Source: Escherichia coli (GTDB lineage: Bacteria > Pseudomonadota > Gammaproteobacteria > Enterobacterales > Enterobacteriaceae). Taken from it: a stretch of 64,000 nucleotides of DNA. The stretch lies in NCBI RefSeq assembly GCF_030013205.1, contig NZ_CP122648.1. The stretch is one strand, 5' to 3'. The translations under genes were made by a program, and so were the position numbers. The notes below the pieces were generated by a model. It was not told the DNA's origin. It did no database searches and was given only the letters and a program-made list of their open reading frames with translations. Every line of letters starts with the position of its first letter. The stretch's first letter is position 1. Below, piece by piece: positions 35,207 through 36,664 of the stretch.

Positions 35207-36664
35207 CTATTTTTTAGCATTCGCATCCAGCGGAGCGGCATAACAACTGTAAGAAAAACATTCGCTGGAATGATTGGCGATATCTTTAAAGTTGCTTTCA
35301 GCAACCCCCTCGAACATGAGTACCGTTCTGGACAACTCTCCGTTGTCATTTATATGTGGAAAATCAAATTGTGTACTGAATCGCCATACATCTGTCTTTT
35401 CTGGCTCGCTGTTCACAGAGATACGTCGATGGAAGACTCCTCCTGAAAACGTGCGCCAGAACAATTGGCGATCAAAATCTTGTAATATCGCAGACTTAGA
35501 TGCTATTTGACGTAGTAAACCTGCATACCGTGGACTGCCATTACGAGCAACATTATGCAAACCCTGACTAAAAGCATCAAACAAACAATAGATGTGATCA
35601 CTAGTGAAAAAAAGTCTTAATTTTTTTTGTTCTTCATCGCTGTAATCCAGGAGCATCTCATTGATTTCTTCCGGTGAGAATTTTAAGACAAAATTATCCT
35701 CAGGATTTGTTTCTTTCTTGTTTTTTTCACTATTCTTCTCCTCAATGGTCTTCGCATTTTGTTTCGCAATTTTTTCCGCATTTTCTTCCTCAGTTTTTTT
35801 CGCAATTTTTTCCGCAATTTTTTCCCGAGTTTTTGATTTTAGACTAACACCATCGATGTCAACCGGTGTTGTTTTCAGATCTCTCTGCGCGTCTTTCAAA
35901 TTTGTCTTATAGAGATCGGGCACTTTATCGGCAGATAAGTATCCGAATGAAGAAATCTGGTGTGTACGCATGGGGGGCTGTTCACAAAGCATCGAGGCTA
36001 TATCGTCTTTAAACTCTTTTACATTAAAGTTATCGGCATTAACCTTCCCTGTTATAAACCCCGCATCGGCAATTTTCTTCTCTAATTGTTTTGTACGTTT
36101 AGAATAATAAGCGTTGTTATCATAAAACTTTTCAAGAAGGGCCCACTCCTCAAGCTGCCTTATGTGATTTTTCAACTGTTGATGATCTATTTTATATTCA
36201 TGTGTACTAGAATCATTTTGGTTGCAAGAGTTACAGATTTTTAAGCATAATTTTCCATCAGATTTATCATCTATGGTATCAGTGAAAATATAGGACACTT
36301 CAATACTCCGCCCGTTCTTATCAGTCATCTCATATGACCATTGCCCCGTTCGTTTCGCATTCTTAATGAGTTCGATGGACTCTACAGGACAACCATGAAG
36401 AATGGGCAGAATTTTATCAGGATGCTTAATGAGTAAAATTATTATATTTACAATATTTGAAAAGAAATCTTTGCTATTTTTTATTTCATCGATTTTTTCC
36501 GCTGAAATGTTTACTAAGTTTTCATTTCCGGAAATGAAAAGCAATTTGCCATGGGGGCTTTTTTTAAATTGTTCTTCTGTTTTAGAAAAAACATCCTCTT
36601 TAAAAGGTGGCAACTCAGTACCAGTAATAAACGGTTTTAATAAATTCGAATTTGAAATTGTCAT
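35207..36664 (-). CDS. Hypothetical protein, 485 aa, AT-rich accessory ORF of unknown function (candidate secreted effector or toxin-like protein)
   Basis: Uninterrupted 1,458-nt ORF with GGAG Shine-Dalgarno ~7 nt upstream of the ATG at 36664; strongly AT-rich versus flanking acpH/malZ; absent from the K-12 gene order (acpH and malZ adjacent); internal Lys/Glu-rich EKIAEKIAKK...AEKIAKQNAK repeat; no recognisable signal peptide or TM helices. Confidence 0.6.
   Translation of the reverse strand: MTISNSNLLKPFITGTELPPFKEDVFSKTEEQFKKSPHGKLLFISGNENLVNISAEKIDEIKNSKDFFSNIVNIIILLIKHPDKILPILHGCPVESIELIKNAKRTGQWSYEMTDKNGRSIEVSYIFTDTIDDKSDGKLCLKICNSCNQNDSSTHEYKIDHQQLKNHIRQLEEWALLEKFYDNNAYYSKRTKQLEKKIADAGFITGKVNADNFNVKEFKDDIASMLCEQPPMRTHQISSFGYLSADKVPDLYKTNLKDAQRDLKTTPVDIDGVSLKSKTREKIAEKIAKKTEEENAEKIAKQNAKTIEEKNSEKNKKETNPEDNFVLKFSPEEINEMLLDYSDEEQKKLRLFFTSDHIYCLFDAFSQGLHNVARNGSPRYAGLLRQIASKSAILQDFDRQLFWRTFSGGVFHRRISVNSEPEKTDVWRFSTQFDFPHINDNGELSRTVLMFEGVAESNFKDIANHSSECFSYSCYAAPLDANAKK

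Follow-up and report, generated by a model that had tools for sequence, protein, structure and literature searches.

Simple-sequence contingency loci are known as the phase-variable genes of Neisseria and Haemophilus, and ER/K single alpha-helix (SAH) spacers, in which about 75–80% of the residues are typically charged, are found in proteins such as myosin VI, myosin X and caldesmon. Within E. coli, the closest documented analogue of the repeat described here is that of domain II of tolA, where 15-bp units, present in 8–16 copies among 234 isolates, encode part of a long alpha-helical connector; their copy number affects stress tolerance, and contractions, which involve several units at once, are RecA-dependent and occur at about 7e-5 (Zhou, Michiels and Aertsen, PLoS One 2012, PMC3477136).

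The repeat analysed in this work lies in a stretch of 64,000 nucleotides of E. coli DNA, hereafter the window. An earlier note on the same DNA had described near-identical units inside an orphan ORF read from the minus strand, and had suggested that they could be hotspots of slippage and recombination, vary in copy number between strains, bring about phase variation, or encode a flexible charged linker between two domains. The block is a genuine coding-region VNTR, composed of head-to-tail copies of a frame-keeping unit, the number of which varies from strain to strain. In the reading that we favour, to which we assign a probability of about 0.72, this in-frame VNTR arose by local duplication in a gene restricted to Escherichia, and the segment that it encodes is a length-tolerant helical spacer, not a rapid switch.

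The repeat array and its host gene

Nine recognisable in-frame 12-bp units, organised with a higher-order period of 36 bp, occupy positions 35720-35827 on the minus strand, as established by TRF, a repeat finder, a unit table, shuffle tests and the sharing of codons. On the coding strand, where the consensus unit is GCG GAA AAA AWT, units 1-3 read CGG GAA AAA ATT (REKI), GCG GAA AAA ATT (AEKI) and GCG AAA AAA ACT (AKKT), units 4-6 read GAG GAA GAA AAT (EEEN), GCG GAA AAA ATT (AEKI) and GCG AAA CAA AAT (AKQN), and units 7-9 read GCG AAG ACC ATT (AKTI), GAG GAG AAG AAT (EEKN) and AGT GAA AAA AAC (SEKN). Two degenerate trailing units, KKET and NPED, recognised from the unit table and from composition (35696-35719, minus strand), close the charged block at Pro321. 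TRF reports a period of 36 bp at 35720-35834 (3.2 copies, 77% match) and a period of 12 bp at 35753-35825 (6.1 copies, 80% match). The latter interval, on the minus strand, is the best-conserved core of the array and, by the TRF results taken together with an alignment of ten allelic coding sequences (CDSs), the site of the indels of 12, 24 and 36 bp that distinguish alleles. The repeat finder isolated six copies, at an exact spacing of 12 nt, between 35746 and 35827 (family D1).

The near-tandem repeats of the earlier note are therefore real: the array was found by three methods, and the two strings quoted for it are each found a single time, one at 35762-35789 and the other at 35798-35825. 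The interval given at the time, 35722-35845, is right to within a few bases, recognisable units spanning 35720-35827 and degenerate ones reaching down to 35696. The peptides EKIAEKIAK and AEKIAKQNAK are present in the minus-strand translation of the ORF at 35207-36664, and the name KEIA, under which the block had been listed, renders the AEKI/EKIA unit only loosely.

By lag analysis, the self-match of the array is 0.61–0.64 at lags of 12, 24, 36 and 48; the corresponding figure is 0.36 in dinucleotide shuffles (z 5.4–6.7), none of 1000 reaching the observed value, while codon shuffles, which keep both amino-acid and codon make-up, give 0.38 (z 4.8–5.9, 0 of 2000). At lag 12, as well as at lag 36, the array is the highest-scoring 126-bp stretch of the 64-kb window. 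All five Ala codons of the block are GCG, while this is true for 6 of the 21 located elsewhere in the ORF (Fisher p=0.007), and all four of its Ile codons are ATT. Since the units have not only residues but also codons in common, DNA duplication, and not convergent composition, is indicated as their origin. A lone unit-like copy, GCGGAAAAAATCGATGAAATAA (AEKIDEI), is found in the N-terminal region at 36481-36502 (aa 55-61), 675 nt from the array, and matches the 22-nt reference copy at 77%. The ORFs that can be read on the plus strand over the repeat (35661-35912 and others) were rejected, since they mirror the low-complexity sequence of the coding strand.

The array encodes residues 280-315 of a 485-aa ORF (35207-36664, minus strand; taken from the ORF list), homologous to ECs_0454 of O157:H7 Sakai. 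A GGAG lies 7 nt 5' of its ATG, and the product is labelled as a hypothetical protein in all genomes carrying the gene. The ORF stands alone in an AT-rich islet that measures about 1.66 kb (35187-36851, not assigned to a strand) and is delimited by a dip in GC content (0.32–0.43, against 0.50–0.57 in the flanks) and by the existence of an empty site: in BL21(DE3) the stops of acpH and malZ are 4 bp apart, and the islet is missing in BL21/K-12-type genomes. The flanking genes, acpH (ending at 35186) and malZ (stop at 36852), are convergent, and the surrounding order, tgt-queA-acpH / malZ-proY, is typical of E. coli. Of 5,426 complete E. coli genomes, about 1,125 (about 21%) carry a homologue of ECs_0454, in a single copy and constantly between acpH and malZ; carriers include O157:H7 (ECs_0454 itself), O55:H7, O145:H28, porcine ETEC and ST69.

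The islet also contains an inverted repeat (36771-36818), whose 20-nt arms are 85% complementary and enclose an 8-nt loop. Lying about 35 nt past the malZ stop, it is a plausible terminator of malZ in strains that have the islet; a search of Rfam over 34500-37500 gave no match. A mobile-element origin of the islet found no support, as there were no phage matches and the two "plasmid" matches to the gene, PLSDB entries NZ_CP134663.1 and NZ_CP141089.1, are 4.9 Mb each and evidently chromosomes filed as plasmids.

The description of the ORF as an orphan holds: in an exhaustive search of 1.84 billion representatives, the homologues of ECs_0454 amounted to one cluster at 50% identity, together with its fragments. 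Nothing significant was returned for the 485-aa protein by Pfam, NCBIfam, PADLOC, PHROGs or the PDB, the last searched by sequence and by profile. Two wobble-degenerate DNA patterns based on invariant motifs, used in search of an outgroup for the ancestral repeat state, had 0 matches in 100,044 species-representative genomes, and no literature on the gene was found under ECs0454, NP_308481, WP_000155946, A0A5Q2ESM1 or guessed Z-numbers. On sequence evidence, ECs_0454 is a fast-evolving gene restricted to Escherichia/Shigella. Its protein evolves unusually fast for a gene that occupies a fixed place on the E. coli chromosome.

Upstream of the repeat, a CX3CX2C motif (CLKICNSC; 36224-36247, aa 140-147) is invariant in 20 alleles. 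A radical-SAM identity was considered for this motif and rejected, the similarity being limited to spacing, with no domain match and with the usual aromatic residue missing. The region comprising aa 102-158 (36191-36361) shows a weak similarity (library-wide E 2.7e-4), marginal and the only distant match of the protein, to a 947-aa metagenomic protein (P0140), whose matched part consists of three tandem PKD-like repeats with the common pattern G.W...D.NG...SY...D...TH.Y; AF2 places beta-strands at aa 102-158 with very low confidence.

Length variation and frameshifts among strains

The variation in length was sampled on 60 evenly spaced matches to positions 35600-35960 of the window, drawn from the 1125 carrier genomes. 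Twenty-eight matches were 349 bp long, 19 belonged to the class of the window allele (361 bp) and 8 measured 373 bp; three more, of 360, 362 or 374 bp, break the frame and are all annotated as frameshifted, and the two partial matches correspond to a divergent, repeat-less allele. When the CDS of the window allele was aligned with nine fetched alleles, all gaps fell within columns 842-950, which correspond to the repeat block. Those preserving the frame are confined to columns 874-905, mapping to 35753-35825, and are 12 bp each, except for the 84-bp gap of the repeat-less allele; in intact alleles, every indel is a multiple of 12 bp.

Among 120 cluster representatives, the segment enclosed by the conserved motifs DIDGV and NFVLKF is 34, 38, 42, 46, 50, 54 or 58 aa long, and the resulting proteins range from 469 to 493 aa in steps of 4 residues. 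A tree of 131 distinct proteins, computed from the columns outside the repeat, requires by parsimony a minimum of 18 independent changes in length; the same tree requires 391 substitutions over 435 flank columns, and the flanks are almost indel-free. Several pairs of alleles have identical flanks and are one or two units apart. The protein P0152 is identical to the O157:H7 allele (P0142) at 473 of 473 aligned residues and lacks IAKKTAEI, corresponding to two units, while P0120 and P0115 are separated by one 12-aa (36-bp) higher-order unit and three substitutions. Both the variation between strains and the slippage or recombination hotspot proposed beforehand are thus borne out, the former by a block that ranges from 34 to 58 aa in 4-aa steps, the latter by the confinement of all indels of the ten aligned alleles to the block.

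A 461-aa allele, present in roughly 31 of the 1125 carriers (L008:1255-2640 and L009:1255-2640; about 35660-35840 in the window), is 24 aa shorter and has a non-repetitive middle, which cannot be aligned with the repeat-bearing alleles and shows a dS of about 1.5, against about 0.1 elsewhere. Outside the middle, its protein is about 85–90% identical to the others.

Within clones, the sampled rows of O157:H7/O55:H7 type were all intact and of the same length and identity (16 of 16). At least 1,000 contigs carry the exact O157 protein, and two carry the variant that is shorter by two units. Compared with the other parts of the gene the block is a hotspot, yet it changes on lineage timescales and is not hypermutable.

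The frame is broken by a different type of event. Homopolymer runs are present in the block because its coding is rich in AAA and GAA, and five of the ten A-runs of at least 6 found in the CDS fall within its 117 bp. Three fetched frameshifted alleles, from ECSC054, O145:H28 strain 12E115 and UTME-3, are accounted for by 1-bp slips in two such runs: an A7 run on the coding strand (35721-35727, minus strand), which is A8 in O145:H28/NM and in UTME-3, and an A6 run (35818-35823, minus strand), which is A5 in ECSC054, the outcome being in each case a frameshifted pseudogene. In 25 O145:H28/NM genomes, obtained by several laboratories in different years (L006, L011), the A8 allele is present with 100% identity, so that it represents a true pseudogene, passed on by inheritance, rather than an error of sequencing. 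In another O145 strain, RM12275-C1, the run is A7 and the ORF, of 489 aa, is intact, the run being the sole difference over the 1,471-nt CDS; its A7 could be a reversion, the ancestral state or an assembly error.

The encoded segment and its possible roles

Residues 277-318 have the composition K12 E10 A5 I4 N4 T3 S2 R1 Q1. The fraction of charged residues, 57–62%, is the maximum reached in the protein, of which the block is also the most hydrophilic part, and no Gly or Pro is found before Pro321; opposite-charge pairs at i to i+3/i+4 number 8 in the best 21-residue window. The hydrophobic period of the block is 4.0, its hydrophobic moment peaking at 90 degrees and being about zero at 100 degrees. 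AF2, supplied with 20 alleles, predicts helices at 277-303 and 307-315 with a pLDDT of 56–69, in a model whose overall mean pLDDT is 38 (54 for a crop of the C-terminal part). Such a poor model is expected for a gene without distant relatives, and the results of a Foldseek search against the PDB (best E 0.2, TM at most 0.32) were not used. Of the flexible charged linker that had been envisaged, the charge and the position between two better-conserved regions are retained, whereas flexibility is not borne out, the segment being predicted, with moderate confidence, as helical.

The last 65 residues or so of the protein are nearly invariant across alleles. A length range of 24 residues, which would correspond to about 36 Å if helical, is tolerated in the block, and the 461-aa allele tolerates the replacement of the whole segment by an unrelated, shorter sequence. 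These features fit a solvent-exposed spacer better than a buried helix. Most likely, the block is such a spacer, mainly helical, and connects the N-terminal part (aa 1 to about 275) with the C-terminal part (aa about 330–485); the division into two parts and a spacer, AF2 models being poor, is drawn from the pattern of conservation and from composition. No hydrophobic segment long enough to act as a membrane anchor was found in the 485-aa protein.

According to the favoured reading, units are gained or lost as wholes when similar copies misalign, be it through slippage in replication or through unequal exchange mediated by RecA, routes that the sequence alone fits equally. Such gains and losses keep the protein in frame and alter the length of one segment, a Lys/Glu/Ala/Ile-rich stretch free of Gly and Pro that most likely forms a spacer of loosely constrained length. 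The clustered A6-A7 runs are a by-product of the codons used, and 1-bp slips in them occasionally destroy the gene.

Other explanations can be weighed against the same data. Collapse or expansion of the repeat during assembly, against which a check had been advised, is effectively refuted: the array, of about 115 bp, is under short-read length, the window allele recurs with 100% identity in independent complete genomes, and each length class is found again in many unrelated assemblies. A selectively neutral expansion of low-complexity sequence in an accessory gene that is decaying or hardly constrained, where the repeat would have no role and its length would be unopposed, appears unlikely, although part of the evidence agrees with it. 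Pairwise dN/dS between alleles is 0.5–1.0, and above 1 in some C-terminal comparisons, with an ordinary dS of 0.02–0.13, so that the constraint on ECs_0454 is weak; the gene is missing from about 79% of strains, frameshifts or stops turn it into a pseudogene in 4 of the 60 sampled carrier genomes (about 7%), in one case fixed in O145:H28, and one allele does without the repeat. On the other hand, a frame of 485 codons, in DNA with 33–43% GC, is still open in about 93% of carriers, as estimated from the 60-genome sample, despite a non-synonymous divergence of up to 10%; indels outside the block are almost nil, the length changes of intact alleles all preserve the frame, and the C-terminal end has hardly varied.

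A phase-variable contingency locus, in which reversible slippage of units or of poly-A runs would toggle the protein at high frequency, is very improbable. The crowding of A-runs in the block, the frameshifts at two of them, and the coexistence in O145 of 25 genomes with A8 (off) and one with A7 (on), identical in the rest of the CDS, are what such a locus might produce. Units of 12 bp, being a multiple of three, are however unable to switch the frame when their number changes, and phase variation through unit number, as put forward in the earlier note, has to be abandoned; the A6/A7 runs alone could toggle it, and runs of A6-A8 are short for a contingency tract. Rather than both states being frequent within a lineage, the state is lineage-fixed, with A8 in 25 of 26 O145 genomes and an intact frame in all 16 sampled O157-type ones. 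Given the split of 25 to 1 in O145, frequent switching is unlikely, and the lone A7 strain could be ancestral or misassembled. An oligomerising coiled coil, in which an Ile/Ala stripe would mediate dimerisation and the number of units would set the length, is hardly to be expected either: Ile-Ala doublets do recur regularly in a segment predicted as helical, but the block has a hydrophobic period of 4.0, not 3.5 or 3.67, and no heptad signal (autocorrelation 1 at lag 7, 4 at lag 4). Owing to this periodicity, an Ile/Ala seam would wind round the helix, instead of providing a single face for packing or building a canonical coiled coil; moreover, only 9 of 42 residues are hydrophobic, five of them Ala, and the repeat-less allele has no equivalent. 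It is improbable, finally, that the repeat acts, under diversifying selection, as an evolvable "molecular ruler" in an orphan protein related to conflict, for instance a defence or secreted factor not yet described, with the number of units tuning the distance between N- and C-terminal modules and A7/A8 providing a low-frequency, reversible switching, which the single in-frame O145 strain might hint at.

Comparison with known systems

The block is an ordinary coding-repeat polymorphism, a routine intragenic VNTR and not an on/off switch. As seven size classes and a null allele exist at a fixed chromosomal site, it can serve directly as a length marker in about one fifth of E. coli, including O157:H7 and O145:H28, and it draws attention to ECs_0454 as a single-gene islet that evolves fast, is confined to the species and has lost its activity in the O145:H28 lineage. 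Once a phenotype of the gene is known, the block could help to study how linker length is tolerated.

With contingency loci, the block shares repeat-mediated slippage in a coding region, its homopolymers frameshifting some lineages. In contrast to them, its unit is frame-silent, its homopolymers are short, and its states are fixed in lineages and not rapidly reversible. A partial likeness to SAH spacers resides in the high content of Glu and Lys, the opposite-charge pairs, the lack of Gly and Pro, the predicted uninterrupted helix and the plausible role as a spacer; the charged fraction of the block is, however, below the one typical of SAHs, and the regular occurrence of Ile/Ala every 4 residues is foreign to SAHs.

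The resemblance to tolA is closer. Both are in-frame tandem repeats of a short unit in an E. coli gene, with a copy number that varies among isolates, and both encode a Lys/Glu/Ala-rich segment, alpha-helical in tolA and predicted as such in the block, joining two other parts of the protein. The unit of the block is 12 bp instead of 15 bp, its copies are fewer and more degenerate (75–80% match), and within clones the locus gives the impression of stability. The two proteins are unrelated in sequence, Pfam and NCBIfam being without a match, and the one described here lacks a membrane anchor, so it is not a relative of TolA. As DNA the block seems to behave like the tolA repeat, and probably it does so within the protein as well; beside tolA, it would represent a second natural case in E. 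coli of a charged helical segment, here predicted, that varies by whole repeat units.
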